Positions 22,459-41,804 of a DNA stretch of 45,711 nucleotides are shown in pieces. The notes beneath the pieces are model-generated. The model was not told the DNA's origin. It saw only the letters and a list, made by a program, of their open reading frames with translations, and did no database searches. This DNA is from Candidatus Parcubacteria bacterium (lineage in GTDB: Bacteria; Patescibacteriota; Minisyncoccia; Phycocordibacterales; UBA12088): assembly GCA_003694545.1 (NCBI GenBank), contig RFKD01000016.1, forward strand, positions 1 to 45,711, read 5' to 3'. The first letter of the stretch is position 1. Each line of letters starts with the position of its first letter. Made by a program: the position numbers and the translations under genes.

Positions 22459-22470
22459 TTGTGGACTGGT

Positions 22471-22499: not shown

Positions 22500-22509
22500 T
22501 TGCCGTGGC

Positions 22510-22581
22510 GCGGGCGTAGTTCAGTGGTAGAACGCCGCTCTGATAAAGCGGAGGTTGATGGTTCGATTCCATCCGCCCGCA
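22510..22581 (+). tRNA. tRNA-Ile (anticodon GAU)
   Basis: Cloverleaf: acceptor GCGGGCG/CGCCCGC, D arm GTTC-AGTGGTA-GAAC, anticodon arm CCGCT-CTGATAA-AGCGG, T arm GATGG-TTCGATT-CCATC. CCA is not encoded. Confidence 0.9.
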
Positions 22582-22827
22582 CAGCAGGTGAGTAGCTCTT
22601 GGTGGTGTCGGTACACCTTTGGTGCGTTAATCGACGCGTATGAAGCGGGGTTCACCTTCCACCTCAGGCTTACCACGTGCTTGGGAAAGCCAAACTGATC
22701 GAGAAGGGAAGCAAGGCCCCGGCACCTTCCTCCTTGCGGTTGCAACAGAGGGAAGCGATCTTCGTCTGAATCGGCGTAACGCCGAAATCGCCAAGGCTCG
22801 TTAGGTGCCGAAAAAGAGGTTTTTCAG

Positions 22828-23691: not shown

Positions 23692-23693
23692 CC

Positions 23694-25619: not shown

Positions 25620-25650
25620 ACGCGAGCACGATGCGCAAAGCGCAAGCGAA

Positions 25651-26922: not shown

Positions 26923-27081
26923 AGAGGATGGCGCAAGCTATTGTACGAGTTATTGTACTAGAAAACCGTGTGCCGATTATCCACACTTTCAGCTTTGCGT
27001 CTTTGTGGGTGTTCACTCACGGAGCGCCGTGTGTCATAATCACTCGCAAATGAAGACATTTTTTGACTTGTCCCTCTTATT

Positions 27082-28830
27082 TTGTGTATGCCGCGCGAAA
27101 ATTTGCCAACACACTCCAGTAGAGCTCCCTCAGACGAAGATTTGCATACCGAGTCTCGCGAGGGGTCCCGTCTTACTCGTCGTTGGGTGCTCGGCGGGTT
27201 GGCTGCGGGGGCGGTAAGCGCGCTGGCGGGCGGCACGCTTGCCCTCCACCGCGCGGCTGACAAAAGAACACGAGAGGCGGAAGAGTTTGCCCAGCGTTTG
27301 GCGAAGGGGGAGGACCTTGAAGGATTAAGCTGGCAAGCGTTTGTGGATGCCGTTTATAGGGAGGGAGAAAGATGGTGGCACAACGCCGTGCAGCAAGCAC
27401 AAGGCGCGCAAGGTCGGTGGAAAAACTCTCTTTCCCGCGCGGATGTGGAGCGCCTTTTGAAGGAGGGTTTTTCCGTCATGGTGCGGGTGGAAGGAAACAT
27501 GGGCGATATTGTTGAGCGTGGGGTGGAAGAAGGGGGTGAGGTTGTGGCGCAAACTACCGGGTACAATGTCTTGGAGTTGAAAACCTTTGGGCCAGCAGAA
27601 ATTAACGCTCGCACGGCACTCCAGCTTGCGCGTGAACACCCCAACCTCACCCGCCTTTTGGAGGAGAGGGGAGTGTATGAAAGGGGCACGTTAGCATTTC
27701 TCCAACAAAACGGCGCGCGAGCGGATGAGGGGGAAATCGCGCGGCGTTTGAGGCTGTTTGATGTGGGATCGGTTGTGTGGGGCGCTGTGCATTTTACCTG
27801 TCTTGCTTCCCTCTACAGCCGTAATCGTGAGGGGGTCGCACAGTTATACAATGCGCGGAGCCTTTTTCTTTCGTGGGCAGCATACAGCGGCACGCCCACC
27901 ACGCCCGCCGTGAGCGCGCTGCAGAATTTACTTAATGAGTTTGAAGGATTGTTGGGTATTCGCCGACAATCGCTCGTTGTTGACGGAAGCTGGGGGCCGC
28001 AGACCAGCAAGGCGCTGGAGGAACTGATAACCCACCTTGAAAAAGGCGCCATGAAGGAAGAAACATCGGAGCGCGCTGAAGATAACCCGCGCGCTCGGGA
28101 AGCGCGGGAGGTGTTGCACAAAAGCGCGATTCCGCTCTTACGCTCTTTGTGCGAGTGTAAGGATATTTTAGAAGGAAGAGGACGGCACAATCCGGCGCGG
28201 CTTGTGCGTCTTGCGCGCCAGGTGCTGGAAGTACAGCATCAATCCTCACTCTTGCGTGAAGCCCTCTGGAAGGGGTTGTGGGAAACAGAGAAAAAAGGCA
28301 CAACCGAGAAAGCGCGAGTGGCGGCGAACCTTATTGTCCAGCGCTACAGCGCCTTGATGGAAAGCTACGAGCGCTTGCAAGACATCATAGAGGATTCGCA
28401 AGATGTGCGCGAGTTACTTGAAAGTTCTTTAAACCCGGCACAACGAGCATCCTTCGCGCCACTGGCGCAGGATAAACGCGACAAGGCGCGCAACACGATT
28501 CGCGATTGGTTTGTGGGGTATCTCAAAGGAAGTGACCAAGACGGCTGGAGGCGCCTTTTGGAAAATGCGTCCCACTTTGAAGAGAAAATGGTGGCGCATA
28601 TTGGCGGCAGGGCTGCGTACTGGCAGGCGGTGTGGCAGGCGTGGTGGCTGGTTCTCAAAGAACGTGTGCCTCTGCGATGGCAGAGCGACGGATTATTCCC
28701 GGGAGCTATCCCCACGCTTCGCCAAGGGGGCTTGTCAGTTGTTGATGTGAGCATTCCGTATCGCCTCGCATTAGCATGGAATTTGCGCGAAAGCGGCGAC
28801 GCGATAGGAATAAGAGATGACGATAACTAA
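27082..28830 (+). CDS. hypothetical exported/membrane protein with a peptidoglycan-binding-like motif
   Basis: The N-terminal SRLTRRWVLGGLAAGAVSALAGG looks like a twin-arginine signal or an anchor. LVVDGSWGPQTSKALEELI resembles PG_binding_1. The start codon is uncertain. Confidence 0.5.
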   Translation: MCMPRENLPTHSSRAPSDEDLHTESREGSRLTRRWVLGGLAAGAVSALAGGTLALHRAADKRTREAEEFAQRLAKGEDLEGLSWQAFVDAVYREGERWWHNAVQQAQGAQGRWKNSLSRADVERLLKEGFSVMVRVEGNMGDIVERGVEEGGEVVAQTTGYNVLELKTFGPAEINARTALQLAREHPNLTRLLEERGVYERGTLAFLQQNGARADEGEIARRLRLFDVGSVVWGAVHFTCLASLYSRNREGVAQLYNARSLFLSWAAYSGTPTTPAVSALQNLLNEFEGLLGIRRQSLVVDGSWGPQTSKALEELITHLEKGAMKEETSERAEDNPRAREAREVLHKSAIPLLRSLCECKDILEGRGRHNPARLVRLARQVLEVQHQSSLLREALWKGLWETEKKGTTEKARVAANLIVQRYSALMESYERLQDIIEDSQDVRELLESSLNPAQRASFAPLAQDKRDKARNTIRDWFVGYLKGSDQDGWRRLLENASHFEEKMVAHIGGRAAYWQAVWQAWWLVLKERVPLRWQSDGLFPGAIPTLRQGGLSVVDVSIPYRLALAWNLRESGDAIGIRDDDN

Positions 28831-29515
28831 AAGCAGTGTGCGCGCGCTAATAACAACGCGAGGAGTGGCGGAAGAGGCCCAACTCAGTAAACGGTGGCAG
28901 CGCAGCGGCGCGGTTGTCGCGCTCGCATGGGGAGCAATGACCCTTCTGGGCGTGGTGACGCTTGGGGCGAGTGTGGGGGCCCACGGAATCCTCCAACAGC
29001 TGATGCAAAACATATCGCCCCATTGGCGGGTGGTGTTGGGAGAATTTTTCTCCGCCTACGGAAGCTGGTGGGGAATAGGAGCCGCGTGGGGAACCCTCTT
29101 GGTGCTTACCCGCGGACGGCTCATGCGCACCGTTGTGGCTTCAGGTTTGGTTGTGGTGGGCGTGGTGGTGAGTGGTTGGATCATGAAAGAGTTTTTCGGA
29201 GTCCCCCGCCCGAGCGATATGCTCGTGGGAGAAGACGGCTTTCGCTACCCCAGCCTTCACGCTGCCGCCGCGGCGGGGCTGTGGGGGAGTGTGGCTTTTG
29301 CGGTGTGGAGGCAAGGGTATAAGAGTTCGCGCGCACTTGCGCTGGTGCTTTTTGTCATCATTGCGGTTGTTGGTATTGGGCGCATGCTGCTTGGCGTGCA
29401 CTATCCCGTGGATGTCGTGGGAGGTATTCTCCTTGCGGCAGGTTGGATCACGCTCGTGTTTAGATACCTAGACAGTACATCGTGCTCAAGGCGAGGAGGT
29501 AGGGTTAGCCAGTGA
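28817..29515 (+). CDS. PAP2 family phosphatase (undecaprenyl-diphosphatase-like)
   Basis: KEFFGVPRP, PSLHAAAA and GRMLLGVHYPVDVVGG motifs. Polytopic. Confidence 0.75.
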   Translation: MTITKSSVRALITTRGVAEEAQLSKRWQRSGAVVALAWGAMTLLGVVTLGASVGAHGILQQLMQNISPHWRVVLGEFFSAYGSWWGIGAAWGTLLVLTRGRLMRTVVASGLVVVGVVVSGWIMKEFFGVPRPSDMLVGEDGFRYPSLHAAAAAGLWGSVAFAVWRQGYKSSRALALVLFVIIAVVGIGRMLLGVHYPVDVVGGILLAAGWITLVFRYLDSTSCSRRGGRVSQ

Positions 29516-29577
29516 AAGAAGCCTCCTGCCGCAAGACGCAGCCCTCGCCAACGCTTCGCGTTGCCTTCGGTGCGCTG

Positions 29578-29661
<84 letters not shown>

Positions 29662-29732
29662 ACTGCCGTGTATGCTATCACAAGGCGACCTATCACAAAA
29701 GAGCTTGGTTGGCGTGGTATACTCAGCAGTAT

Positions 29733-30365
29733 ATGGCGCAGGGAAGCGTTCCTCTTCTTCTTGGAGCTGCGGTGGTTGTGGTGGCGCTGGGGTTTGCCGG
29801 CGGGGTATTGTGGGCAACATCCAAAAACACGCCCCCTTCAGACAACGAGCGCATTGCCGAGTTTTACGCAACGGAAGTTGCCGTGCACAAAAGCGCGCAC
29901 TCCGTGCGCAAGGCGATTATGCAAGGGGACGACTCTTTTGTGCTGGTGGATCTGCGCTCTCCGCAAGAGTACGAGCGGGAACACATTGTCGGCGCGGTAA
30001 ACATTCCCGCCTATCGCGACCCGGATACTTCCGCCTATGGGGAAGTGGAGCGTATCGTGCGCGAGTTCCGGAAGTTGCAAGCCGAACACCCCGGCAAGGA
30101 CATTATCGTGTACTGCTACAGCGCCGCGTGTATGACGGGGAGAAAAATCGGCGCGATGCTCGCGCAACACGGCATTTTCGTGAAGCACCTCACCGTCGGT
30201 TGGCAAGAGTGGCGCTATTTCTGGAACTTATGGAATCACGACGGGGAAACACCGGTTGATCTCACTTGGTTTGTCGCCTCCGGCAAGGAACCAGGCCGCT
30301 ACGAAGGGCCGCGGTTGCCGATGGTGGGCGGCTGCAGCGCGGAGGGTAACGATTTTGGCTGCTAG
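29733..30365 (+). CDS. rhodanese-like domain protein with an N-terminal TM anchor
   Basis: FVLVDLRSPQEYEREHIVGAVNIP and IIVYCYSAACMTGRK active-site-like loop. Trimmed to ATG 29733 because the upstream part of the track ORF overlaps tRNA-Leu. Confidence 0.65.
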   Translation: MAQGSVPLLLGAAVVVVALGFAGGVLWATSKNTPPSDNERIAEFYATEVAVHKSAHSVRKAIMQGDDSFVLVDLRSPQEYEREHIVGAVNIPAYRDPDTSAYGEVERIVREFRKLQAEHPGKDIIVYCYSAACMTGRKIGAMLAQHGIFVKHLTVGWQEWRYFWNLWNHDGETPVDLTWFVASGKEPGRYEGPRLPMVGGCSAEGNDFGC

Positions 30366-30398
30366 ATCGTTTGTCTTACGCGACATCGATCCTGCCCT

Positions 30399-31310
30399 AT
30401 GCCTCGCCGCACCTTTTTGTCTTATCCCAAGCGTCACTCTCCAAAGGCTCCGCCCAAGAAGAGTGAGCTATTTGTTGGGGTGGTGGGGTACGGGTATGTG
30501 GGAAAGGCGGTAGCGCGGTTTTTTGCGGAGCGATTTGTCGTTGCAGTGTATGACCCGTATGTGCGGAAATTGCCCCCGGATACGCCACAAGGGGTGCGGA
30601 AGGTCGCTTCGCTCAAAGCATTGAAAGAAGCCTTGGTGAGCGTGGTGTGCGTGCCGACGCCGCAAAGGGAGGACGGTGCTGCGGAAGTGAGCATTGTTGA
30701 GGAGGTGGTGCGCACGCTTCCGACGGACCTCATTGTCATCAAAAGCACGGTGCCGCCTGGCACCACACAGCGCCTGCGCGAGGAAACAGGCAAGCGCATC
30801 GTGTTTTCTCCCGAGTATATTGGAGAAGGGAAGTACCCCGTGTTTTCCGAAGGCGAGCGGGCGTATCCACACCACACGGATATGCGCCAGCACCGCTTTC
30901 ATATTTTTGGTGGGCCGCGAGAAGACACGCGGCGCGCGGCTGAGATTTGGCAGAAGGTCGCGGGCCCCCAAGTGCGCTATTTACAAACCGACAGCACGAC
31001 GGCAGAGCTGGTGAAGTACGCCGAAAACAGCTACCTTGCCCTCAAGGTTACTTTTTGCAACCAACTGTATGACCTCGCGCAAGCGCTTGGCGTGGATTAC
31101 CACGAATTGCGCGAGCTCTGGCTTGAGGACGGACGCGTTGAACCTTCTCATACCTTAGTGTACCCGGACAGCCGCGGCTTTGGCGGAAAGTGTCTTCCCA
31201 AAGACACTGCCGCGATTCTCGCGGTCGCGCGTAAGGTTGGGGTGGACTTTTCGGTGATGAAGGCCGCAGTTGATTACAATCGTTGGTTGCGAAAAACACT
31301 CGAGGACTGA
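30399..31310 (+). CDS. nucleotide-sugar dehydrogenase (UDP-glucose/GDP-mannose dehydrogenase family), short form
   Basis: VGVVGYGYVGKAVA NAD fold and the GGKCLPKD catalytic motif. At 303 aa it appears to lack the usual C-terminal domain. Confidence 0.65.
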   Translation: MPRRTFLSYPKRHSPKAPPKKSELFVGVVGYGYVGKAVARFFAERFVVAVYDPYVRKLPPDTPQGVRKVASLKALKEALVSVVCVPTPQREDGAAEVSIVEEVVRTLPTDLIVIKSTVPPGTTQRLREETGKRIVFSPEYIGEGKYPVFSEGERAYPHHTDMRQHRFHIFGGPREDTRRAAEIWQKVAGPQVRYLQTDSTTAELVKYAENSYLALKVTFCNQLYDLAQALGVDYHELRELWLEDGRVEPSHTLVYPDSRGFGGKCLPKDTAAILAVARKVGVDFSVMKAAVDYNRWLRKTLED

Positions 31311-31356
31311 CGGAAGAGAAATAAACTATATTAAGAGAAATCGTCAGCAGCCCTCT

Positions 31357-31941
31357 TTATTTGTCACTCGTTCTCCCTTCGAGTTCTTTACGAGCGAGCC
31401 GCTCTAGCGCTAGTAAGATTAAGTACAGCGCTTTTAATTCTTCGGTTCTTTCTTGTACCCTTACAGAGCTTCCGATAAGCCTTTCTTCCTCCAATCTTTT
31501 TTTCTGCCCTTTACTCTTTGCTCGTGATAATGACTCGAGTTGGAGGAGAGCATCTTCGACTTTTTCTTTCACTCCTTCAATAAGCCAGAGAGGGAGAACG
31601 ACGCCCCTGTCTCTTTCGCTTTCAGCGGGCGGAAGAAAGGCTTGAAGGAGGTGTACGGGAGTGTAGCGATACGTGGCTAGCGGCTCAGACACTATGCCTT
31701 CTGCGCTGTATTTTTGAAACTCCCCGTATAATCGGTGAAAGTATCGGATGAACTCACTCATTAAAAACTCTTTCACTTTCGGATCAACCGGTTCAGGTTT
31801 ATGAGCCCCTAAGCGGAGAGATTCTGGCAAAGCTGTGCCTCGGAATAGTTTTGGGTCGGGCAGTCCCTCTTCTGGTGAAGAAAGCCAAACGGGAGTGTCT
31901 TGCTGAGGGAATAGTCGTTCTTCGTCTCCGGGGCCATTCAT
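31357..31941 (-). CDS. hypothetical protein (A/T-richer orphan)
   Basis: 194-aa ORF with protein-like, charged composition and no recognised domain. Confidence 0.45.
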   Translation of the reverse strand: MNGPGDEERLFPQQDTPVWLSSPEEGLPDPKLFRGTALPESLRLGAHKPEPVDPKVKEFLMSEFIRYFHRLYGEFQKYSAEGIVSEPLATYRYTPVHLLQAFLPPAESERDRGVVLPLWLIEGVKEKVEDALLQLESLSRAKSKGQKKRLEEERLIGSSVRVQERTEELKALYLILLALERLARKELEGRTSDK

Positions 31942-32344
31942 AAAGAATAGTGTTATTCAAGGATAGCAGAATACACCATCGTCGAGAAGATAGGAATAGA
32001 AAAGGTGGAGAACGCGCGTCTTCTCTTCACGAGTACCCTTGCTTTGCTGGAGGTATCTTTGAGCGTTTGCGCAAACTTTTCGAGGGAGGAAAACGGACTT
32101 CTTCTCCAGGTTCGCGAAGCGTGGTCTCAATCATCACTTCGTCTTTTGCAATTTTGGCGAGGACCCCTGTGCAATGCGCGCCGCAATTGTTGCCCAACTA
32201 CCTTTCAGGAGATTTTCTCACATTGTCACTTCCTTGTTTTCCACCATGCTTTCCCGCCCAAAGGGAGGATGAGGGGGGTAAAAAGGATTCAGGGGGAGGG
32301 TGGAATGTCACGCGCCTCGCTAAGGGCATGGTAGAATGGTCGCG

Positions 32345-33685
32345 ATGAGTTGGCAAGCGTTCTTTACCGGCAAGCGCGTTACGGTGATGGGGTTGGGTTT
32401 GCTGGGGCGCGCGGTGGGAGACGCCGAATTTTTAGCGCTACACTGCGCGGAGGTTACCATCACGGATCTCAAAGACAAAGAAGCACTCGCGACTTCCGTT
32501 GCGCGCCTCACCCGCTATCCCAACATTCGCTTTGTGCTGGGGCGGCACGAGCTCTCGGATTTTGAAGGGCGCGATTTTATCTTGAAAGCCGCCGGGGTTC
32601 CACTCGAGAGTCCCCACATCGCACACGCGCGCCAACACGGTATTCCCGTTGAGATGAGCACGGCGCTGTTTGCCGCGTTTGCCGGCATTCCTATCATCGG
32701 CGTGACGGGAACGCGCGGCAAAAGCACCACCACGCACCTTATTCACCACACACTCTTGCAGGCGGGCGTTCGCGCACTCTTGGGGGGCAATGTGGCGGGG
32801 GTTTCTACGCTCGCGCACCTACCAAGAGCAGGAGAGTACGAAGTCGCGGCACTTGAGCTTGATTCGTGGCAGTTGCAGGGATTTGGCGAGCGGCGCCTTT
32901 CTCCCCAACTTGCGGTGTTTACATCGTTTATGGAGGATCACCAAAACTACTATCCTTCCATGGAGCGCTATTTTGCTGACAAGGCGCACATTTTTGCTCA
33001 CCAAAACAAAGACGAGGGCGTTTTGGTCGCATCTCCGCAAGTGATTGCCGCGATTGGCGCTTACGGCTACGCGCGGCAGGTGCCAAAACGGGTCGTGATT
33101 GCGCAACCAACGGAGGAAGTGCCCCCCACGCCCCAGTTGTTGGGCGCGTACAACCGATGGAACGCGGCTGTAGCGTATCACGCCCTGCGCGTATGGGGTT
33201 TATCATATGAGGATATACAGCACGGCTTTGCTTCGTTTCGGGGCGTGCCGGGGCGGCTGTCGTTGGTGCGGGAATGGGAAGGGGTTGCGTTTTATAACGA
33301 CACCACAGCAACGACGCCGCAGGCGGCGCGCGCGGGCATTCAAGCGCTCGTCGAGCGACACAAAAGGGTGGTTGCCATTATGGGGGGATCCGACAAGCGA
33401 ATTTCTGAGGAGGAATACGCGGCACTTGCTGATTTGATAGCACGAGAAGAGGTGCAGGTTGTGTTGTTGGAAGGAAGCGGCACGCCACGGCTCGCGCGCC
33501 TTCTTGAGGAGCGCGGGGCTGCCGCCGAGGGGCCTTATGGGAGTATGGATGAAGCCGTCTCCCGCGCGCGCGAGCTCGCGCGCGCGGGAGACGCCGTCGT
33601 TCTTTCCCCCGCTTTTGCCTCCTTCGGCTTGTTTCAAAATGAGTTTGATCGCGGGGAGCAGTTTGAGCGGGAGGTTAGGGGTTAA
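32345..33685 (+). CDS. murD: UDP-N-acetylmuramoylalanine--D-glutamate ligase
   Basis: VTVMGLGLLGRAVG, GVTGTRGKSTT and the overall Mur ligase layout. I prefer ATG 32345 because TGgTAGAAT (32329-32337) overlaps the alternative ATG at 32336. Confidence 0.85.
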   Translation: MSWQAFFTGKRVTVMGLGLLGRAVGDAEFLALHCAEVTITDLKDKEALATSVARLTRYPNIRFVLGRHELSDFEGRDFILKAAGVPLESPHIAHARQHGIPVEMSTALFAAFAGIPIIGVTGTRGKSTTTHLIHHTLLQAGVRALLGGNVAGVSTLAHLPRAGEYEVAALELDSWQLQGFGERRLSPQLAVFTSFMEDHQNYYPSMERYFADKAHIFAHQNKDEGVLVASPQVIAAIGAYGYARQVPKRVVIAQPTEEVPPTPQLLGAYNRWNAAVAYHALRVWGLSYEDIQHGFASFRGVPGRLSLVREWEGVAFYNDTTATTPQAARAGIQALVERHKRVVAIMGGSDKRISEEEYAALADLIAREEVQVVLLEGSGTPRLARLLEERGAAAEGPYGSMDEAVSRARELARAGDAVVLSPAFASFGLFQNEFDRGEQFEREVRG

Positions 33686-33732
33686 GCGGACGCATTTCCC
33701 GATGAGGCTCTCTGCGCTGGAGGGAATTTTGA

Positions 33733-34608
33733 CTAACTGAGGTGCTGCACGATGGCGCTGTGCCATTCTTGCAACCTCTGTGTTGCCGCCTGCGGGTCAA
33801 GAAGCGGTGCAGGTGCCTCCAAATAGCCGAGGAGGAGTTGTCGCACAACATCTCCTTGCCACTCATCAAGAAAATCGGCAACCCTTCGCAACTCCTTCAC
33901 GGTGTAGTGAGGAGGAATGAGGCGGCGCGTTTGTTCCCAGTGGTTGAAGAAAGTCTTGGTAAGCAGGAGGTTATGAGATTTTGCTTCCAATATCGCCTTT
34001 CCTTGCGGTTGTGTGAGGAGGGTGGGGAAAGCGACGAGCGCGGTAAGAAGGGCATACAACTGAGCTGTCTGCCGTGCTGGTCCACCTTGTATTTCAAACA
34101 CGACGTCCCCGGTATTTTCCCCAACACCGAAATGAGCGGCGCGAGAAGAAAGACAGATTCGCAGCAAAAAAGTATTGTCTTCTTCTGTCTGCTCTTCCTT
34201 TTCCTCTTCTCGCGCTCTATCTGAAATCTCCTTGTCCTCTACTTTAACCTCAAAAAATGTGGGATTAATGATGCCCCACGCGAGAAGGCGCCGACACATC
34301 TCTGGCTTTTGGGCGCAGATATTGAATAGAGTTTGAGTGAGGGGAAGGGGCTGGTTACTCTCTTGGATTTGGTCGATGAGGTGCGCAAAGAGTGTTTGCC
34401 CGCGATCCCAGGTGCACTCTTCTAGCTCGAATTCATCAATTGACGAGGAGTCACCAGTGGACGGGTTGTTTTGGCGCATAAGTGGTTCGCAGATGGCAAC
34501 CCACTGCTCCAACAAAAACACGGCCTGCTCAACGGGTTCTTCTGGGATACCCGCGATTTGCAGCCCGGAAGGTTTCGGCTTGCGCCCTCCTTCACCGAAA
34601 TGCGGCAT
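33733..34608 (-). CDS. hypothetical protein (A/T-richer orphan between murD and murC)
   Basis: 291-aa ORF with a central acidic stretch and no recognised domain. TGaTAGTATAAT lies just upstream of its ATG. Confidence 0.45.
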   Translation of the reverse strand: MPHFGEGGRKPKPSGLQIAGIPEEPVEQAVFLLEQWVAICEPLMRQNNPSTGDSSSIDEFELEECTWDRGQTLFAHLIDQIQESNQPLPLTQTLFNICAQKPEMCRRLLAWGIINPTFFEVKVEDKEISDRAREEEKEEQTEEDNTFLLRICLSSRAAHFGVGENTGDVVFEIQGGPARQTAQLYALLTALVAFPTLLTQPQGKAILEAKSHNLLLTKTFFNHWEQTRRLIPPHYTVKELRRVADFLDEWQGDVVRQLLLGYLEAPAPLLDPQAATQRLQEWHSAIVQHLS

Positions 34609-34753
34609 TGCAGATTATACTATCATAAAACCGGCAAGATGCTGAGCTGGGAGCGTATCATCGCGGTTTGTTGTTGGCCTCCGGTTGGAATTATGCACGG
34701 CGAGTAGCACGCGCTCCTTCCCTCGCGGTGAGGAAAAGAGTAAAGTGGTAGGT

Positions 34754-36091
34754 ATGAAAACGCAGTTTGTGGTGCCGCGTGTTGTGTATTTTGTGGGGAT
34801 TGGGGGGATCGGGATGTCGGCCCTTGCGCAATGGTATGCGGCGCGCGGGGCGCGGGTGAGCGGGTCGGATCGGGATACCGATTCTCCTGTCGTCGCGCAG
34901 TTGCGCCGCAAGGGTATTGAGGTACGCGAAGGGCACAGCGCGCGGTTCGTGCCGACCGACGCACAACTCGTGGTGTATTCCGACGCGGTTCCGCCGGATA
35001 ACCCCGAGCGCGAGGAGGCGCGAAGGCGCGAAGTGCGGACCCTCTCGTATTTTCAAGCGTTGGGCGAGGTGAGCCGCGCCTTTCCCCGCGTGGTTGCCGT
35101 TGCGGGCAGCCACGGGAAGACCACGACAAGCGCGATGCTTGCGCTTGCGCTTGTGGCTGCCGGACGAAAGCCGACGGCGTTTGTCGGTTCCCTCGTGCCG
35201 CAGTTTCCCGAGGGGAGCAACCTTCTTTTTGGGGGGCAAGATGTGTTGGTCGTGGAAGCGTGCGAGTATCGGGCGCACATTCGCGAGTTCGCAATCACGC
35301 ATCTTGTCCTTACCAACCTCGAGTGGGATCACACAGACTATTTTGCCTCGGAGGATGCGGTGATCGCCCTCTTTCGGGAGGTGATAGCACGGCTGCCGGA
35401 AGGAGGGGTGGTGGTTGCCAATCCAACGCTCCCCCTGGTTGCCCGCGCGCTCGCGGCGCTTTCCAACGGAGCGCGCATTGTTGATTATACGCGCGAGGAA
35501 GCGCCTTTACTTCTTGTTCCCGGGGTGCACAACCGCGCCAACGCGCAGGCGGCGCTTGCGGCGGCGCGCGAAGTGCTAGGGGATGATGCCGAAGCGCTCC
35601 GCGCAGCGCGCGAAGCGGTTGCCAACTTTCGCGGCGTGTGGCGGCGATTTGAGCGCTATGGGCAAAGCGCAGCGGGAGCCGAAATTGTTGACGATTACGC
35701 CCACCATCCAACGGAAATTGCCGCGACCTTGCACGCGGCGCGCGAGGTGTTCCCAGGGCGCCAGATTGTCGTGCTATTTCATCCACACCTCTATTCCCGC
35801 ACGCGCGATTTGTTTGACGATTTCGCGCGCGAGTTGTCGCGGGCGGATGAGGTGTATCTCTTGCCCATTTACCCCGCGCGCGAGCGCGCGGAGGATTACC
35901 CCGGCGTTTCCAGCGACACCCTCGCGCGCGCCATTAACACCATGAGCGGTAACGCGCGCCTGGCGCGCACGCTGGAGGATGCCGCAAACAAACTCTCTGC
36001 ATACGGCCCCGACAATGTCATCATCACAATGGGAGCAGGCGAAGGCTACAAGGTTGCCCGTGCCCTGCGGGAAGGCAAGATGCAAGGTTGA
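34754..36091 (+). CDS. murC: UDP-N-acetylmuramate--L-alanine ligase
   Basis: VYFVGIGGIGMSALAQWY, VAVAGSHGKTTT and DDYAHHPTEI motifs. Start trimmed to ATG 34754. Confidence 0.85.
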   Translation: MKTQFVVPRVVYFVGIGGIGMSALAQWYAARGARVSGSDRDTDSPVVAQLRRKGIEVREGHSARFVPTDAQLVVYSDAVPPDNPEREEARRREVRTLSYFQALGEVSRAFPRVVAVAGSHGKTTTSAMLALALVAAGRKPTAFVGSLVPQFPEGSNLLFGGQDVLVVEACEYRAHIREFAITHLVLTNLEWDHTDYFASEDAVIALFREVIARLPEGGVVVANPTLPLVARALAALSNGARIVDYTREEAPLLLVPGVHNRANAQAALAAAREVLGDDAEALRAAREAVANFRGVWRRFERYGQSAAGAEIVDDYAHHPTEIAATLHAAREVFPGRQIVVLFHPHLYSRTRDLFDDFARELSRADEVYLLPIYPARERAEDYPGVSSDTLARAINTMSGNARLARTLEDAANKLSAYGPDNVIITMGAGEGYKVARALREGKMQG

Positions 36092-36112
36092 TGCGTATTG
36101 TTTGATGGGATG

Positions 36113-36207
36113 GCAAAAAGAGCCGCCGGGGGGACCGGCGGCTTATGTCGGACCTCGAGAGGCTCTACCCTCGGAGTGCCCCCATGGCGTGGGATCAGGG
36201 AGGCGTC
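36113..36207 (-). ncRNA. candidate small RNA Y1 (promoter TTGACT-17-TATCTT at 36239-36211; terminator 36142-36113)
   Basis: Minus-strand -35 and -10 boxes with 17-nt spacing. The predicted 5' end carries GCCUCCCU (36204-36197). Hairpin GCCGCCGG/CCGGCGGC is followed by a T-run on the minus strand. Confidence 0.3.
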
Positions 36208-36313
36208 TTTAAGATAATTCTTTTCTCAGAAGTAGTCAAATGTGGGCTGTGGACAGCGGAGGATTCTTTCTCTTGATTGATTGCAATCTACTTACCCAAA
36301 CCCAACCAATCAC

Positions 36314-36415
36314 AAAAAAGCCGCGGGCAAGGCCCGCGGCAAGCAAGTATAGGGAGGAAACGCCTCAAGTGTGGGAAGCACCCTGCCCTTACGAAGGGGA
36401 GGAGATGCGTCCCAA
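36314..36415 (-). ncRNA. candidate small RNA X1 (promoter TTGACG-15/17-TATAAGT at 36448-36420; terminator 36340-36314)
   Basis: Minus-strand promoter-like boxes. The 21-mer ACTTGAGGCGTTTCCTCCCTA (36370-36350) is identical to copy X2. Hairpin GCCGCGGG/CCCGCGGC is followed by TTTTTT. Confidence 0.3.
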
Positions 36416-36589
36416 ACTTAACTTATACCGTCTTAACGACTTCGTCAAGAGCCACTTTTTGTGTGGTTATTCTGTTTTGCAAAGTGTCTCTCTGTCTCTT
36501 TCTTCTAACTCGGATGCACGAATTTTTATGCTGTTCGCAAGCGAGATACGGCTGCTTCTCCTTGCATTGTTTAACGGCATTATTGCGCT

Positions 36590-36877
36590 ATGGGAACGCT
36601 TGCTGTTGTTGCAACACCACTTGGCAACTTGGAGGACATCACCTTACGCGCCCTGCGGATACTGCGCGAGGCGGACTTGGTTCTCGCGGAAGACACGCGC
36701 CGTGCGCGATCACTCCTCTCGGCGCTGGAGATACCCGCGCCGCGCCTGGCGCGCACGCTGGAGGATGCCGCAAAAAAACTCTCTGCGTATGGCCCCGACA
36801 GCGTCGTCATCACAATGGGAGCGGGCGAAGGCTACAAGGTTGCCCGCGCCCTGCGGGAAGGTAAGACGCAAAGCTGA
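36590..36877 (+). CDS. chimeric ORF: RsmI N-terminal 52-55 aa fused to MurC C-terminal about 43 aa
   Basis: An intact 95-codon ORF created by the duplication. It keeps the rsmI-type upstream region (CATTAT box 6 nt before the ATG). No frameshift or stop despite about 10% divergence. Confidence 0.4.
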
Positions 36878-36889
36878 CGCGTCTTATTT
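36862..36889 (+). terminator. hairpin overlapping the chimeric ORF stop (TAAGACGC/GCGTCTTA + TTT)
   Basis: 8-bp stem, 9-nt loop, then tttg. No equivalent hairpin follows the murC stop in unit A. Confidence 0.35.
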
Positions 36890-36906
36890 GCGACGAAGCG
36901 GCAAAC

Positions 36907-36990
36907 AAAAAAAGGACCGGCGGTGCGCAGGCATGCCGCCGGTCAAACTCCCGCCCCCGCGAGGGGGGCGGTGGGAGGGAGGCACCTTCA
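36907..36990 (-). ncRNA. candidate small RNA Y2 (promoter TTGACA-17-TATTAC at 37023-36995; terminator 36944-36907)
   Basis: Consensus -35 with 17-nt spacing. GCCUCCCUCCCA sits near the predicted 5' end (36983-36976 for GCCUCCCU). An internal 8-bp GC hairpin is followed by the terminator GACCGGCGG/CCGCCGGTC plus TTTTTTT. Confidence 0.3.
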
Positions 36991-37135
36991 TCTAGTAATA
37001 ATTCTTCTCTCAGGGCTTGTCAAGCACGGGTTGTGGACAACGCGGAGGAATTTTGCGGGCGCTTCCGCCGAATGTTGCGCGAGAGGCGGCGCGTAAATAA
37101 GATCAAGTACAACACCACTCTTTGACTCAATCATG

Positions 37136-37200
37136 AAAAAAGCCGCGGGCAGAGCCCGCGGCTAGTGGTAGGGAGGAAACGCCTCAAGTCGGGTGTTTCG
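37136..37200 (-). ncRNA. candidate small RNA X2 (promoter TTGACA-17-TATCAT at 37234-37206; terminator 37162-37136)
   Basis: Consensus -35 with 17-nt spacing. Carries the same 21-mer ACTTGAGGCGTTTCCTCCCTA (37089-37069) and the same GCCGCGGG/CCCGCGGC + TTTTTT terminator as X1. Confidence 0.3.
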
Positions 37201-37344
37201 ACACGATGATATACCTTTGTGATAACCTTGTCAAGAGGATCTCGTTTGCCAATATTGACGCTCCAAATCGCGCTCTGTACAGAAACTTTTTGTTGAAAAT
37301 ACGGACTGCTTGCTCCTTGCTTCGTTTAACGGCATTATTGCGCT

Positions 37345-38046
37345 ATGGGGACGCTTGCCCTTGTCGCAACGCCGATAGGCAACTTGGAGGACATCACCTT
37401 GCGCGCCGTGCGGGTATTGCGCGAGGCGGACTTGGTTCTCGCGGAAGACACGCGCCGCGCGCGTGCGCTCCTTTCGGCGCTCAAGATCCCCGCGCCGCGC
37501 CTTGCGCGCGCCGATGAAGCGGCGCTCGCGCGCGGGAGCGCGCAGCGTGAAGCGCTACGCGTGTTACGCGAAGGCGGGTTGGTCGCGTTTTTGACCGACG
37601 CGGGAACCCCGGGCGTTGCCGACCCCGGATGGCGCCTTGTTACAAGCGTTCTCGAAGCGGAACCTGAGGCGCGGCTTGAGGTTGTTCCGGGACCTTCCGC
37701 TTTGACGGCAGCGCTTGTGGCGGCGGATTTTCCCGTTGAGCGGTTTGTCTTTTTTGGCTACCCGCCGCGCAAAAAGGGGAGGGCAGGCTTTCTCGCGGAC
37801 ATCGCGCGCGAAACGAAGCCCGCCGTTTTCTTTGAAAGTTCACACCGCATCGCGCGCACGCTTGCCGAGCTCGCGCGCCTTGCCCCAGAGCGCCACGCCC
37901 TCTGGGCGCGGGAAATAACCAAGGCGCACGAACAATACCTGCGCGGGCCTTTGTGCGCGCTTGCCGAAGCGGTTGAGCGCGATGCTCAGCTCGCGCGCGG
38001 CGAACACACGCTCGTGCTTGCGGCCGCGCCCCCTCGCGCTCGTTAG
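37345..38046 (+). CDS. rsmI: 16S rRNA (cytidine1402-2'-O)-methyltransferase
   Basis: [50 protein letters not shown] and FYESSHR-like FFESSHRI motifs. 233 aa. Confidence 0.85.
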   Translation: MGTLALVATPIGNLEDITLRAVRVLREADLVLAEDTRRARALLSALKIPAPRLARADEAALARGSAQREALRVLREGGLVAFLTDAGTPGVADPGWRLVTSVLEAEPEARLEVVPGPSALTAALVAADFPVERFVFFGYPPRKKGRAGFLADIARETKPAVFFESSHRIARTLAELARLAPERHALWAREITKAHEQYLRGPLCALAEAVERDAQLARGEHTLVLAAAPPRAR

Positions 38047-38070
38047 GCCGCTGTGGCATACTAAAGCGGT

Positions 38071-38424
38071 ATGCCACTACGAAAATTCAGCACGCTTCTT
38101 TTGCTGTTGGGTTTTGCGGGCATGTTCCTTGCCATTGCGGGCATTCCGCGCGATTGGAAGGACATTGGCTTTCTCCTTGTTGGCGCGAAGACGCTCGCGC
38201 TCGGCATTTGGATTCGCACGCATCTGCCCTCGCGGTCTTCTCGTGAAGCTCGCGCGTCCGCCGGACGACGCGTCCCGCGCAGAGGGCCTTCGCGCGGGCC
38301 ATTTGAGCGAGAGGAAGAATTCCAATCACATCGGAAAGAGGCGGGCTCAGTTGAATCCGCGCCGGAGTCACATAATTCTCGTGAGGCATTTGAGGGTGAC
38401 CACGCGCGCTTACCAAGAGAATGA
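38071..38424 (+). CDS. small membrane protein (2 TM) with a charged C-terminal tail, hypothetical
   Basis: 117-aa ORF. TGgCATACT lies 8 nt upstream of the ATG. Two clear hydrophobic helices. Longer overlapping track ORFs in other frames look like artefacts. Confidence 0.5.
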   Translation: MPLRKFSTLLLLLGFAGMFLAIAGIPRDWKDIGFLLVGAKTLALGIWIRTHLPSRSSREARASAGRRVPRRGPSRGPFEREEEFQSHRKEAGSVESAPESHNSREAFEGDHARLPRE

Positions 38425-38430
38425 GGAAGT

Positions 38431-39834
38431 ATGGCGCGCCCCCACAAACCGCACGCCGCGCGAAGGAGAGCCGTACGCGCCGCGACGCTTTCAGCATTAA
38501 CCGTTGCCGTGGCGGGAGGGTTGTTGTGGGCGGCAACGGTGTTTTCCGGGGTAACCTACCGCGCCGCGCCGCCAAGCGCTGCGCAAACAGCTGTAGCCAC
38601 TGAAGCGGCGGCAAGCACACAAACGGCAAGGGCCGATGGGGAGCAGGAAGCCGCGCAATCCGCCGACTCTCAAGAAAAAGCCGCAGCACCGCCCGCGCTG
38701 TATCTGCCCACCCCCGAGCCGGTGCGCGCGGTTTATATGAGTCAGTGCGTCGTAGGAACGCCGTCGTTGCGCGAGAAGCTTGTGCGCCTCATTGAGGAGA
38801 CCGAGCTCAACGCTGTGGTGATTGATGTGAAGGACTACACAGGAACGATTGGCTTTCCCACCAGTCACCCTCTCTTGCGCGACGCGGCAATGCAGCACTG
38901 CGGCGCGCGCGATATGCGCGAGTTCGTGCGCCGCCTCAACGAAAAGGGTATTTATACCATTGCGCGCATTACCGTCTTTCAAGATCCGTGGTACGCCCTG
39001 CGCCACCCCGACGAGGCGATTCAGCACAAAAGCTTGCCCGGAGAGGTGTGGCGCGACAAGAAGGGTTTGTCGTTTGTTGATGTTTCCGCGCGGCCGTTTT
39101 GGGATTACATCCTCGCGCTCGCGCGGGAAGCGCGCGCCGTTGGGTTTGACGAGCTGAATTTTGATTACATTCGCTTTCCGTCTGACGGCGATATGGAAAG
39201 CGTTGCGTTTCCTTGGACAAAAGACACACCCAAACCGGAAGCCCTTGAGCGCTTTTTTGCCTTTTTGCACCAAGAACTACGCGAACGCGACCATATCCCC
39301 ATTTCTGCCGACTTGTTTGGTATGACCACGACAGTGCATCACGACCTCAACATCGGGCAGGTTTTGGAGCGCGCCGCGCCGTACTTTGATTTTATCGCGC
39401 CAATGGTCTATCCTTCGCACTATCCCCCCGGCTATCTCGGCCTTGCCAACTCCAACAGCGATCCGTACCGCGTTGTCTTTAATGATCTTTCCGAGGCAGC
39501 GCGCCGCCTTGAGGCAACCACAACACCCATCCGCACCTTGCGCAACGAGTCGCCCAAGATGCGCCTTGAAGTCATCCCTGCCTCGTCCTCCACGCCAACC
39601 ACGACGCGCGAAGTCTTCACGGGCCTCTATCAAAAGTCTGCCTATCCCCGCACCCTGCTGCGGCCGTGGCTGCAGGATTTTGATTACGGGGGCAACTACG
39701 GACCTAAGGAGGTGCGTGCGCAAATACAAGCGGTGTATGACGTGGGGCTGACCTCTTGGATGCTCTGGTCGCCGTCGAATCGTTACACGAGTGAAGCGCT
39801 TGAGCATTCTGGTGCGCAAGCGCCGGGAGGGTAG
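38431..39834 (+). CDS. membrane-anchored putative glycoside-hydrolase-like TIM-barrel protein (DUF4015-like)
   Basis: N-terminal anchor, then VRAVYMSQCVVGTPSLREKLVRLIEETELNAVVIDVKDYTGTIGF and FDELNFDYIRFPSDG, which resemble the DUF4015/GHL pattern as I remember it. Confidence 0.5.
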   Translation: MARPHKPHAARRRAVRAATLSALTVAVAGGLLWAATVFSGVTYRAAPPSAAQTAVATEAAASTQTARADGEQEAAQSADSQEKAAAPPALYLPTPEPVRAVYMSQCVVGTPSLREKLVRLIEETELNAVVIDVKDYTGTIGFPTSHPLLRDAAMQHCGARDMREFVRRLNEKGIYTIARITVFQDPWYALRHPDEAIQHKSLPGEVWRDKKGLSFVDVSARPFWDYILALAREARAVGFDELNFDYIRFPSDGDMESVAFPWTKDTPKPEALERFFAFLHQELRERDHIPISADLFGMTTTVHHDLNIGQVLERAAPYFDFIAPMVYPSHYPPGYLGLANSNSDPYRVVFNDLSEAARRLEATTTPIRTLRNESPKMRLEVIPASSSTPTTTREVFTGLYQKSAYPRTLLRPWLQDFDYGGNYGPKEVRAQIQAVYDVGLTSWMLWSPSNRYTSEALEHSGAQAPGG

Positions 39835-39836
39835 CG

Positions 39837-39873
39837 GCCACCTTGCGCCGCGCGAAGCACGGCGCAAGGTGGC
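39837..39873 (+). terminator. perfect 14-bp GC hairpin after the stop codon (weak U-tract)
   Basis: GCCACCTTGCGCCG-cgcgaagca-CGGCGCAAGGTGGC. It is immediately followed by the TGcTACACT box of the next gene. Confidence 0.5.
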
Positions 39874-39893
39874 TGTGCTACACTATCTGATGT

Positions 39894-41804
39894 ATGCCCC
39901 ACGAGCCGCGCTGGGAGGAAAACCCCGATTCGGTGGTGCTCATTGGCGAAACAACCGCCCGCGCGGCAGCGACACTCTTCGGGATCAAAGCCAAAGACCG
40001 CTTGCGCCACCTTTACGCCATTGGAAAAACCGGCATGGGTAAGTCAACCCTGTTGGAGAACCTTGCCATTCAAGACATTCGGCGAGGGGCGGGAATTACC
40101 TTTGTTGATCCGCATGGATCCTCCGCTGAGCACTTGTTGGATTTCATTCCCAAGGAGCGCGTGCGCGATGTTATCTACTTTGCGCCGTTTGACCTCGCCC
40201 ATCCCATCGCGTTCAATGTGCTGGAAAAGGTGGATCCCGACAAGCGGCACCTCATTGTTTCAAGCCTAATGGCGACCTTTGAAAAAATTTGGGTGGACGC
40301 GTGGTCTGCCCGTATGGCGTACATCCTCCAAAATACCCTGAGCGCCCTGTTAGAGTATCCGGGCGCGACGCTCTTGGGAGTCAATCGAATGTATGTCGAC
40401 AGTGAGTTTCGCAAGCATGTGGTGGAGCATATTACCGACCCCGCCGTCAAATCGTTTTGGAAAGACGAATACACGAAATACACCGACCGCTACGCTGCTG
40501 AAGCAACGCCGGCCATTCAAAACAAAATCGGCCAATTTGCTTCTAACGCGATGATCCGCAACATCGTCGGGCAGGAGCACACCTCCTTTGACTTGCGGCG
40601 CGTGATGGATGAGCGCAAAATTCTCATTGTCAACCTTTCCAAAGGGAGAATTGGAGAAGACAACGCGCGCCTTTTGGGCGCGATGTTGGTGACGAAGCTC
40701 TATCTGGCGGCAATGTCGCGCGCGGACACTTCGCCTCAGGAACTCGCGGCGCTTCCGCCGCACTATTTGTATGTTGACGAATTTCAATCGTTCGCCAACC
40801 GAACCTTTGCCGACATTCTCTCGGAAGCTCGCAAGTTTAAGCTCGCGCTCACGATAGCCCACCAATACATTGAACAAATGGAAGAAGAAATCCGCGCCGG
40901 CGTTTTTGGTAATGTCGGGACGATGATAACCTTCCGCGTCGGCGCGTACGACGCGGAAGTGCTTGAGCGCGAGTTTGGCCCCAAAATCACCGCCCAAGAC
41001 CTCGTCAACCTCGGCTTCGCGGAAATTTACATTCGCCTCATGGTGGACGGCATTACCTTACAACCTTTTTCCGCGCGGACGCTCCCGCCCTTCCCGCGGC
41101 CGCAAGAGAGCTACCGCGCGATGGCGCTTGCCGCGTCGCGCGCGCAGTGGTCGCGCGACCGCAAAGCTGTGGAAGAAGAAGTCTTGCGCTGGCACGTGCC
41201 GGTCGTGTCGGAAGCGACACAACTCAAGCGCGAACGCAAAGAGCTGCGCCGCCAACAGCGATTAAGCGACAATCAACAAAATGGTGCAACGCAAGGAAAA
41301 GGTGCGCGAACTGCCACGCAAAAAGAGAGCGCTTCTCAACCAAACGCCGAGGGCAAGCAGGAGGCGCAACCGTTTGATGACCTTGGCAGCGCGAATGCTT
41401 CTGGAGCCCAAGCACGGGCTGGCGCCTCACGCGATGCGCAATTCGCTTCCTCGTGGCAGTTGGGCGATATTCTTGCCGCCGTGCTTGCGCAAGAAGCGCA
41501 AAAAGGAAAAGAATCGCACGATCGTGCGGCCAGCGTGGACGAGAGGCACAAGCAGGAGGCTAAGGTAGAGAATGAAACACTGCGCGAGCTTCTCCTGCGT
41601 CTGCACCGTATAGAAACAAAGCTTGGGCAAGCGATCCCTTCGCGCAAGCAAGGAGGGAAGCAAGGCGGTGGGAAAGGGGAGCAGGGCGAGCAGGCCCCAC
41701 CGCAGGATCTTCAGCGCCTCCTTGCCGTGGAAGAAGACGCGGCGTCTGAACGCGATGCCAAATCTTATGCAGAGAATAAGCGTAGCGAGAAAGAGGCTTC
41801 CTAG
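39894..41804 (+). CDS. TraD/VirD4/HerA-like P-loop NTPase (type IV coupling-protein-like) with a low-complexity C-terminal tail
   Basis: Walker A IGKTGMGKSTLL, VDPHGS, Walker B HYLYVDEFQSF and ARKFKLALTIAHQYIEQM. The last about 200 aa are K/E/Q/A-rich. Confidence 0.6.
   Translation: MPHEPRWEENPDSVVLIGETTARAAATLFGIKAKDRLRHLYAIGKTGMGKSTLLENLAIQDIRRGAGITFVDPHGSSAEHLLDFIPKERVRDVIYFAPFDLAHPIAFNVLEKVDPDKRHLIVSSLMATFEKIWVDAWSARMAYILQNTLSALLEYPGATLLGVNRMYVDSEFRKHVVEHITDPAVKSFWKDEYTKYTDRYAAEATPAIQNKIGQFASNAMIRNIVGQEHTSFDLRRVMDERKILIVNLSKGRIGEDNARLLGAMLVTKLYLAAMSRADTSPQELAALPPHYLYVDEFQSFANRTFADILSEARKFKLALTIAHQYIEQMEEEIRAGVFGNVGTMITFRVGAYDAEVLEREFGPKITAQDLVNLGFAEIYIRLMVDGITLQPFSARTLPPFPRPQESYRAMALAASRAQWSRDRKAVEEEVLRWHVPVVSEATQLKRERKELRRQQRLSDNQQNGATQGKGARTATQKESASQPNAEGKQEAQPFDDLGSANASGAQARAGASRDAQFASSWQLGDILAAVLAQEAQKGKESHDRAASVDERHKQEAKVENETLRELLLRLHRIETKLGQAIPSRKQGGKQGGGKGEQGEQAPPQDLQRLLAVEEDAASERDAKSYAENKRSEKEAS

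Follow-up and report, generated by a model that had tools for sequence, protein, structure and literature searches.

The suhB/MmgR family of small RNAs (sRNAs; Rfam RF00519, alpha-r8) is described as carrying an anti-Shine-Dalgarno (anti-SD) targeting motif (PMC7143759, PMC3346310), and its published biology comprises dependence on Hfq, this anti-SD motif, and modular 'Lego' 5' domains placed on a suhB module (PMC7143759, PMC8401924, PMC3346310, bioRxiv 10.64898/2025.12.09.693200). In the present study, a contig of 45,711 nucleotides (nt) from a Parcubacterium (RFKD01000016.1 of assembly GCA_003694545.1) was analyzed; this whole stretch is referred to as the window. It contains a duplicated spacer between the genes murC and rsmI, in which a previous reading of the letters alone (the sequence-only reading) had placed four minus-strand promoter-to-terminator units, Y1 and X1 in the first spacer copy, and Y2 and X2 in the second. 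All four are present at these places, and they are best explained, judging from their architecture, as minus-strand small RNA genes. They had been taken for one new class of RNA, which does not hold for X: covariance model comparison places X1 and X2 in the suhB/MmgR family and not in a new RNA class, whereas Y matches no known family.

In our judgment, X1 and X2 are probably trans-acting suhB/MmgR sRNAs that were transferred from Alphaproteobacteria into the ultrasmall genome of a Parcubacterium and duplicated together with the spacer, with Y1 and Y2 as resident candidate companions. The sRNA family itself is known; what is new, as far as the model matches indicate, is a member of RF00519 in an unexpected phylum. 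To our knowledge, no trans-acting sRNA family has been assigned to bacteria of the candidate phyla radiation (CPR). If the assignment is true, X would be the first one that we know of in the CPR, and well-documented transfers of an sRNA gene between phyla, of which it would be one, are rare.

Membership of X1 and X2 in the suhB/MmgR family

An Rfam scan, which the sequence-only reading had proposed, was performed on the spacer region with an E-value threshold, and RF00519 was the sole significant family. X1 matched it with 40.1 bits (E-value of 1.8e-6 over 1.25 kb and 8.1e-6 over 5.7 kb) and X2 with 31.1 bits, the curated gathering score of the family being 41 bits; nothing significant was obtained for Y. 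Two related assemblies, KatS3mg100 (locus L002) and KatS3mg099 (locus L003), were available for comparison. The X1 ortholog of KatS3mg100 scored 43.6 bits, over the gathering score, and the alphaproteobacterial copies of the Geminicoccaceae type (described below) themselves reach just 41.2–43.9 bits.

In the alignment to RF00519, CUUGaGGCGUUUCCUCCCUAuACUU of X is matched to CUUGGGCGUUUCCUCCCUAgACUU of the consensus, and the terminator comes next. The core GGCGUUUCCUCCCUA is identical in X1, X2, X of KatS3mg099 and X1 of KatS3mg100; the X2 copy in the second spacer of KatS3mg100 is intact but diverged, with a core reading GACGUUUGCCCUCCCUU. The 21-mer previously reported as identical in X1 and X2 is indeed present in both, but its position in X2 had been given as 37089-37069, which is wrong by 100 (the true position is 37189-37169). 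Of the stem-loop that RF00519 has immediately 5' of the core (GCCC-UUCUU-GGGC type), just two of the four pairs form in X1 and X2, and it is equally weak in the Geminicoccaceae-type copies. X1 of KatS3mg100 is able to form CCC/GGG in this stem, as read from the sequence.

A covariance model, designated R1, was built from 10 alphaproteobacterial sequences only, with the CPR lineage left out. When applied to 97.7 kb of CPR DNA, R1 retrieved exactly five X copies, with scores of 72.8, 56.0, 41.8, 32.5 and 26.3 bits (E-values from 2e-16 to 9e-5), and nothing beyond these under an E-value of 0.1. The two window copies were among them, X1 with 41.8 bits (E-value of 1e-8) and X2 with 56.0 bits (3e-12).

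The likeness extends to the general plan of the RNA. The X core, CUUG(A)GGCGUUUCCUCCCUA(N)ACUU, differs hardly at all from the consensus of the family (MmgR of S. meliloti, SuhB of Sphingopyxis); as in the family, a GC-rich intrinsic terminator directly follows it and a short stem would precede it, and the size of the RNAs (64–100 nt) is alike. The suhB-like genes form several paralogs with variable 5' domains (PMC3346310), and so do the X copies: the three X types (X1; X2 and X of KatS3mg099; X2 of KatS3mg100) have one 3' module and differing 5' domains, which matches the described suhB module.

The differences concern the host, the promoters and one 5' domain. The family members described so far have alphaproteobacterial hosts, which reflects present knowledge of the family and is no structural requirement, while the host of X is a Parcubacterium without a 16S anti-SD and without SD-led genes, so that SD occlusion has no obvious substrate. 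The X promoters are of the plain sigma-70 consensus, without the upstream motif of the alphaproteobacterial copies. Nutrient regulation of the promoter involves an NtrC/AniA dyad in S. meliloti and a LysR-type regulator in Sphingopyxis, whereas the CPR promoters (TTGACA-17-TATCAT / TAAGTT) share nothing with the alphaproteobacterial upstream regions. Finally, X1 has a novel C-rich 5' hairpin.

The C-rich motif had been put forward as a possible pairing motif in all four units. For X, the RF00519 alignment supports this view, in that the motif would be the conserved single-stranded core of a known base-pairing sRNA family; in Y1 and Y2, by contrast, CCUCCC is predicted to be paired within the 5' hairpin. 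A small GAGG/CCUC hairpin postulated within X found no covariation support, and the X1 ortholog of KatS3mg100 has AGGG in place of GAGG.

Structure of the minus-strand units

The coordinates of the four units and of the adjacent genes are given in Table 1. All five X copies of the three CPR lineages keep both promoter and terminator, the X terminators having stems of 9–10 bp with nine G-C pairs, followed by a T-run of six. These features go beyond what would be expected by chance. The best three terminator-like sites in positions 20001–40000 are those of X1, X2 and Y1, and the only promoters in positions 1–40000 that match 11 of the 12 consensus positions are those of 23S, 16S and X2. The -10 box of X1 is best read as TAAGTT after 17 nt, a register common to the diverged X2 copy of KatS3mg100, and the fold z-score of X1 is -5.0. 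The composite pattern of TTGAC, C[CT]TCCC and a T-run, in this order, was found at no other place when the window and six related loci were scanned. Promoter boxes were found on all four units, as had been claimed, but the -10 box of Y2 lacks the final T and was not called by the consensus scan.

Table 1. Predicted units and neighboring features of the duplicated murC-rsmI spacer (positions in the window)
Feature	Position	Strand	Promoter	Predicted RNA	Basis or remark
murC (UDP-N-acetylmuramate--L-alanine ligase)	34754..36091	+			Gene call and Pfam Mur_ligase domains; converges on Y1
Y1 unit	36113..36239	-	-35 TTGACT 36239-36234; 17 nt; -10 TATCTT 36216-36211	~36204-36113; 5' start GCCUCCCU; terminator stem 36143-36121, T-run to 36113	
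X1 unit, predicted suhB/MmgR-family sRNA gene	36314..36448	-	-35 TTGACG 36448-36443; -10 TAAGTT 36425-36420	~36413-36314; C-rich 5' hairpin; core ACUUGAGGCGUUUCCUCCCUA 36370-36350; terminator 36340-36320, T-run to 36314	
Chimeric open reading frame	36590..36877	+			rsmI 5' end joined in frame to murC 3' end at ~36741-36754; duplication remnant
Y2 unit	36907..37023	-	-35 TTGACA 37023-37018; 17 nt; weak -10 TATTAC 37000-36995	~36988-36907; CCUCCCUCCCACCGC pairs with GCGGGGGCGGGAG; interrupted terminator stem 36944-36915, T-run to 36907	
X2 unit, predicted suhB/MmgR-family sRNA gene	37136..37234	-	-35 TTGACA 37234-37229; 17 nt; -10 TATCAT 37211-37206	~37199-37136; shortened 5' hairpin; core 37189-37169; terminator 37163-37141, T-run to 37136	
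rsmI	37310..38046 including promoter; ATG 37345	+	Leaderless type, read from the sequence: TTGCTC 37310-37315; 17 nt; CATTAT 37333-37338; 6 nt to ATG		Gene call and TP_methylase domain; diverges from X2 promoter

The expected conservation of the blocks in related genomes was borne out for X. Between spacer 2 of the window and KatS3mg099, both promoter boxes of X (-35 and -10), its core and its terminator are retained with one substitution, while drift is seen in the promoter spacer and the flanks; the 5' hairpin differs by an indel of 20 nt that leaves the GUGU/ACAC base of its stem in place. The drift between the promoter boxes had also been claimed for the Y copies, in which, however, the -35/-10 stretch CTGAGARAAGAAT is kept.

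It was considered whether the conserved blocks are plus-strand elements, for instance a small open reading frame (ORF) behind GGGAGG, or a murC or rsmI leader or terminator. In plus-strand orientation the core is UAGGGAGGAAAC, an SD-like sequence, and long plus-strand ORFs (36240-36995 and 36277-36864) cross the spacer. However, the Rfam and R1 matches lie on the minus strand only, as do the T-runs after the stems, any frame is broken by the indels that distinguish KatS3mg099 from the window (1, 2, 6 and 20 nt), and the lineage does not use SD sequences. A plus-strand origin of the blocks is, in our opinion, extremely improbable. Both long ORFs were rejected as out-of-frame read-through of the rsmI' and murC' fragments. 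Small minus-strand proteins (among them those of ORFs 36988-37134 and 36236-36346) were rejected as well, since the same indels break their frames.

The CCTCCCT motif occurs 15 times in the window, compared to 4.75 expected occurrences. Two further copies are located on the minus strand of the divergent intergenic region before murD (31941-32336), where no promoter or terminator was seen; one of them sits in the X-core-like sequence CGTTTTCCTCCCTCG (32095-32081).

Relationship of X to alphaproteobacterial copies

A pattern scan of a genome collection returned mostly alphaproteobacterial mmgR genes among the matches listed, which do not amount to a taxonomic census. The alphaproteobacterial comparison set was fetched with a pattern of the core and the start of the terminator that requires GCCGCGG. 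One subgroup among the matches listed, comprised of Geminicoccaceae and metagenome-assembled genomes (MAGs) of uncultured Alphaproteobacteria, carries GUGUUCAUGGGUUUCUCCUGUGACACCCGACUUGAGGCGUUUCCUCCCUA, which is almost X of KatS3mg099 over its whole length. X of KatS3mg099 and the sRNA of the alphaproteobacterial locus L030 are 88% identical (76/86), the 5' hairpin included, and window X2 is 87% identical to the same sRNA. The alphaproteobacterial copies within this Geminicoccaceae-type subtype are 87% identical to one another and 65–69% identical to the Azospirillum-type copies, and the two CPR paralog types are 73% identical to each other.

The loci of this subtype (L011, L020, L029, L030, L075, L080, L090, L096, L098) show 82–88% whole-RNA similarity to X of KatS3mg099, with which they share both a 5' hairpin of the sequence GUGUUC...GACAC and, at the junction, ACCCGACUUGAGG, and they too include tandem paralogs (L080, L096). 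They differ from the CPR copies in their promoter regions, which are unrelated, and in their context (rnj and nuoN in L011 and L080, compared to murC-rsmI); window X2, unlike them, has lost most of its 5' hairpin. Locus L011 is genuinely alphaproteobacterial, because genes encoding NuoN and RNase J adjoin its sRNA gene.

The question arises of whether this likeness could be due to convergence on a short C-rich seed followed by a terminator. The family is short, a generic terminator contributes to the score, and the retrieval pattern pre-selected similar terminators. Against this, the 88% identity extends over 86 nt and includes a 5' hairpin under no obvious constraint, the CPR copy is as near to the alphaproteobacterial copies as these are to each other, and the model built from alphaproteobacterial sequences only matches at an E-value of 2e-16. 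Convergence is therefore highly improbable in our view.

Several observations on the comparison set may be added. The Geminicoccaceae-type copies are often tandem paralogs located near rnj (RNase J) and nuoN. A motif that may be a regulator site, AATTCGAAACGATA, recurs in L011, L075, L080, L096 and L098 at a distance of about 100 nt upstream from the sRNA. Matches with the full sRNA architecture were also found on short contigs in MAGs of other phyla (L043, L089), which may be binning errors.

Probable origin and mobility of the X module

More distant relatives of the host lack X. In L255 (54% MurC identity) the murC-rsmI spacer is 81 nt long, with no X; in L253 and L254 (64% MurC identity) it is ~140 nt long and holds one minus-strand unit, without an R1 match. 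The absence of X from relatives at 54–64% MurC identity indicates that X was added within the clade formed by KatS3mg099, KatS3mg100 and the window. As the family is widespread in Alphaproteobacteria, a transfer from Alphaproteobacteria to the CPR is the economical reading, and from this we infer the direction. Horizontal acquisition from Alphaproteobacteria is thus the best reading of the sequence comparisons. The donor was probably an alphaproteobacterium with the Geminicoccaceae-type variant, and the module would have been inserted beside an older resident unit, Y, under consensus sigma-70-type promoters. The near match to a single alphaproteobacterial subgroup gives a testable clue to the host or neighbors of this hot-spring Parcubacterium.

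In an IMG/VR scan, at least 120 viral or proviral contigs with the suhB/MmgR core 15-mer (L125-L244) were present among the matches listed, and 10 of 14 sampled contigs pass the RF00519 gathering score. The frequency of RF00519 genes on viral contigs suggests that the module is mobile. A viral scan for the CPR/Geminicoccaceae subtype with CTTRRGGCGTTTCCTCCCTA yielded four matches, all of the classical type and none of the subtype, and so identified no direct vector. The module on viral contigs may be phage-borne or located at prophage borders.

Y1 and Y2 as candidate companion RNAs

The similarity between Y1 and Y2 exceeds that of 300/300 shuffles, and the two units have in common the promoter block CTGAGARAAGAATTAT and GCCUCCCU. 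Y2 is 100% identical in the window and KatS3mg099, inside a ~190-nt block of perfect identity that may reflect recent recombination. Y1 of KatS3mg100 differs from that of the window at two places: a U-to-C change converts a U-G pair of a predicted stem to C-G, and the loop of the terminator is longer by one C. In spacer 2 of KatS3mg100 (9527-9715) Y is no longer recognisable; its terminator is missing and only a CCUCCUUGCC remnant is left.

The Rfam covariance scan of Y1 and Y2 retrieved no family, the best scores being those of anti-hemB (22.9 bits, a weak alignment of Y2) and suhB (20.1 bits, E-value of 0.23). When Y1, Y2 and the 5' hairpin of X1 were compared by BLAST with 120 loci, alphaproteobacterial and other, nothing beyond the clade was obtained, and a metagenome scan for TTGACNNNNNCTGAGARAAGAATTAT, the promoter block of Y, turned up five matches, all chance occurrences in unrelated DNA, and no additional copy of Y. 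Other sRNAs with a C-rich or anti-SD seed, namely AbcR1/2 (alpha-r15), NfeR1 (alpha-r14), SorX (RF02784) and Burkholderia anti-hemB (RF02837), resemble the units in combining a CCUCCC-type motif with a terminator. Their scores are far under the thresholds (22.9 vs 49.5 for anti-hemB, 15 vs 58.8 for ar14, 17.7 vs 46.6 for SorX), no homology is shown, and the Y motif, unlike their seeds, is predicted to be paired.

A single minus-strand unit is located in the equivalent spacer of L254 (2817-2910) and L253 (7320-7411). It consists of TTGACA-17-TTTAAG, a C-rich segment, GUUCCUCCCCACC, and a strong 14-bp terminator. Homology of Y to this unit was rejected as not significant, since 49 and 145 of 300 shuffles scored as well; for the X1 5' hairpin the result was borderline (5/300 shuffles). 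The unit may be an older counterpart of Y.

We consider it plausible, from conservation and architecture, that Y1 and Y2 are lineage-specific candidate companion sRNAs, weaker candidates than X. Alternatively, their hairpins could form the 3' ends or terminators of convergent murC transcripts and of transcripts that read through from X, and the promoter-like boxes would be incidental. This would agree with the location of the hairpins 22–50 nt past the murC or murC' stop codon, with the failure of the Y2 -10 box TATTAC in the consensus scan, with a C-rich motif that is paired and not exposed, and with the lack of an Rfam family or homolog outside the clade. The T-runs, however, are found on the minus strand only, the promoter block and 5' end are conserved between Y1 and Y2 beyond all of the shuffles, and the more distant relative has a minus-strand TTGACA, a C-rich segment and a terminator at the equivalent place. 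A purely terminating function is thus unlikely, although it deserves consideration.

Translation initiation in the host and possible targets

The 3' end of the window 16S rRNA (22190-22235, CCUGGUCGUGAAAUGGUUCCACAUUGGAGG) reads ...GGUCGUGAAAUGGUUCCACA and is without the CCUCC anti-SD. Loss of the anti-SD has been reported for a Parcubacteria subgroup by Tsurumaki et al. (PMC9297842). Upstream of the called genes of KatS3mg100 and KatS3mg099, SD-like tetramers were found in 5/30 cases (12% in the background) and TANNNT boxes 5–10 nt before ATG in 11/30 (3.3% in the background); the gene starts of L253 and L255 follow the same pattern. Many gene starts in these four loci, as well as window positions 37310-37347, have an extended -10-like box, TGnTAnnnT, that ends 5–10 nt before ATG. 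These start regions suggest that the lineage initiates on leaderless mRNAs, and that this is widespread in the clade. A 16S-3'-tail-like sequence, CACCUUCCUCCUU, is located at 22723-22735, 140 nt downstream of tRNA-Ile and outside 16S, and is probably due to chance.

The sequence-only reading had raised the idea that the X and Y RNAs supply an anti-SD in trans to ribosomes whose 16S lacks it. The lack of CCUCC in 16S and the presence of CCUCCC in all units are what speak for it. Yet with leaderless initiation there would be no sequence on which an anti-SD provided in trans could act: the genes show no SD enrichment and their start sites look leaderless. The units share nothing with the 16S 3' domain beyond CCUCC, and anti-SD loss is a known trait of the Parcubacteria subgroup mentioned above. 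The suhB/MmgR family, moreover, operates in Alphaproteobacteria, which have ordinary 16S rRNA, and we know of no report of 16S anti-SD loss in those Alphaproteobacteria where the family was described. We therefore attach next to no probability to this idea.

The finding sharply raises the question of what an anti-SD-type seed would act on in an organism from which the 16S anti-SD and SD-led initiation have both been lost. Possible answers are that the X seed has endogenous G-rich targets, that it is a leftover of the transfer, or that it acts on a host. According to the last answer, the X RNAs, taken from an alphaproteobacterium (possibly the host on which the Parcubacterium would depend), would be inter-bacterial effectors acting on SD regions of host mRNAs and not on its own mRNAs, which we hold to be very improbable. 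If it were true, the X genes would be read from promoters of rRNA strength although the bacterium's own translation uses no SD, and, from the 88% match, the host would be expected to be Geminicoccaceae-like. A TrwB/VirD4-like coupling-protein gene (faint Pfam matches) is located at 39894-41804, 2.5 kb downstream of the sRNA cassette; it would be relevant only to a speculative export to a host.

The best non-self complement of the X core in the window is GGGAGGGAGUGCGCCUC (18839-18855), in an ORF-free region. The surrounding ~1 kb (18153-19152) has no convincing ORF and no Rfam match at E-value ≤ 1. A literature search, in which small RNAs in the CPR were not searched for directly, found no paper linking Hfq with CPR/Patescibacteria or Parcubacteria with leaderless mRNAs.

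Proposed mode of action and its assessment

The analysis itself shows how the genes are built, to which family X belongs, which parts are conserved, that the distribution is restricted, and that anti-SD and SD are absent from the host. From the anatomy of the genes and by analogy with MmgR and SuhB, we infer that X1 and X2 are transcribed and would act in trans on mRNAs. In their common 3' module, a short stem would be followed by GGCGUUUCCUCCCUA as the single-stranded core and then by the GC-rich intrinsic terminator; to this module differing 5' hairpins are joined. The exposed C/U-rich core would pair with purine-rich, GGGAGG-like sites in mRNAs and so change translation or stability, while the C-rich 5' arm of Y1 and Y2 would be mostly locked in a hairpin.

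A number of points weigh against this proposal as a whole. X1 and X2 of the window both score under the gathering score of RF00519, and folding predicts that part of the X core can pair (GAGG/CCUC). The similarity of the terminators is selection-biased by the GCCGCGG pattern, which leaves the 5' hairpin, the junction and the core unbiased, and the phyletic distribution, drawn from the matches listed in the genome scan, is incomplete. Y is known from just three close genomes; its C-rich motif is predicted to be paired, the -10 box of Y2 is weak, its best Rfam score (22.9 bits) is far from the gathering score of that family (49.5), and only position and architecture are in common with the unit of L253 and L254. 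The host has no SD/anti-SD system, so that the classical SD-region target is missing, and a duplex scan of the window for targets of X and Y, a 45-kb sample of low power, revealed no convincing start-region target.

X and Y might also be transferred or duplicated passenger relics in decay, with no regulatory role in the Parcubacterium. The host offers no SD sequences to the seed, decay is seen in the duplicated gene fragments (the KatS3mg100 chimera contains a stop codon), Y is not recognisable in spacer 2 of KatS3mg100, and most of the 5' hairpin is lost from window X2. Decay is difficult to reconcile with -35 and -10 boxes, cores and terminators that are kept while the intervening sequence drifts, with an X2 promoter equal to the rRNA promoters in matching 11/12 consensus positions, and with the retention of promoter and terminator in 5/5 X copies of three lineages. 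We regard the relic explanation as quite unlikely, and favor functional suhB/MmgR-type sRNAs.

The spacer duplication, neighboring genes and host

The cassette lies in the murC-rsmI spacer and would be transcribed opposite to both neighbors. The tandem duplication comprises the spacer together with the adjoining 3' end of murC and 5' end of rsmI. The duplicated blocks on the murC side (35955-36104 vs 36741-36890) are 90% identical, and those on the rsmI side (36558-36754 vs 37313-37509) 88% identical. A tandem duplication of ~770 bp would have doubled the small RNA cassette to four genes. An assembly artefact was ruled out as its source, the identical duplication junction and flanks being present in KatS3mg100, an independent NCBI MAG. 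KatS3mg099 has one spacer only, which is 87.6% like spacer 2 of the window. The chimeric ORF is considered a decaying remnant, because its copy in KatS3mg100 has TAG at codon 15. The rsmI promoter block is kept in both related assemblies.

The host is a CPR bacterium (Parcubacterium), as indicated by the names of its RsmI and MurC homologs (Parcubacteria, Paceibacterota or Kaiserbacteria) and by the 16S and 23S of the contig itself. The window RsmI and MurC are 92–98% identical at the protein level to those of KatS3mg100 ('Candidatus Parcubacteria bacterium', GCA_026004575.1) and 88–91% identical to those of KatS3mg099 (GCA_026004555.1), and the farther homologs carry the names Paceibacterota, Kaiserbacteria or Patescibacteria. 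The murC and rsmI flanks are common to these three independent assemblies, and the window also matches a contig of a Joint Genome Institute (JGI) metagenome (sample 3300014796). Since the contig bears its own 23S-5S (1656-4891) and 16S-tRNA-Ile (20724-22582) genes, the CPR assignment is independent of binning. These rRNA genes are unlinked, the two units being 16 kb apart, and each is preceded by a promoter matching 11/12 consensus positions (1332-1359 and 20554-20582).

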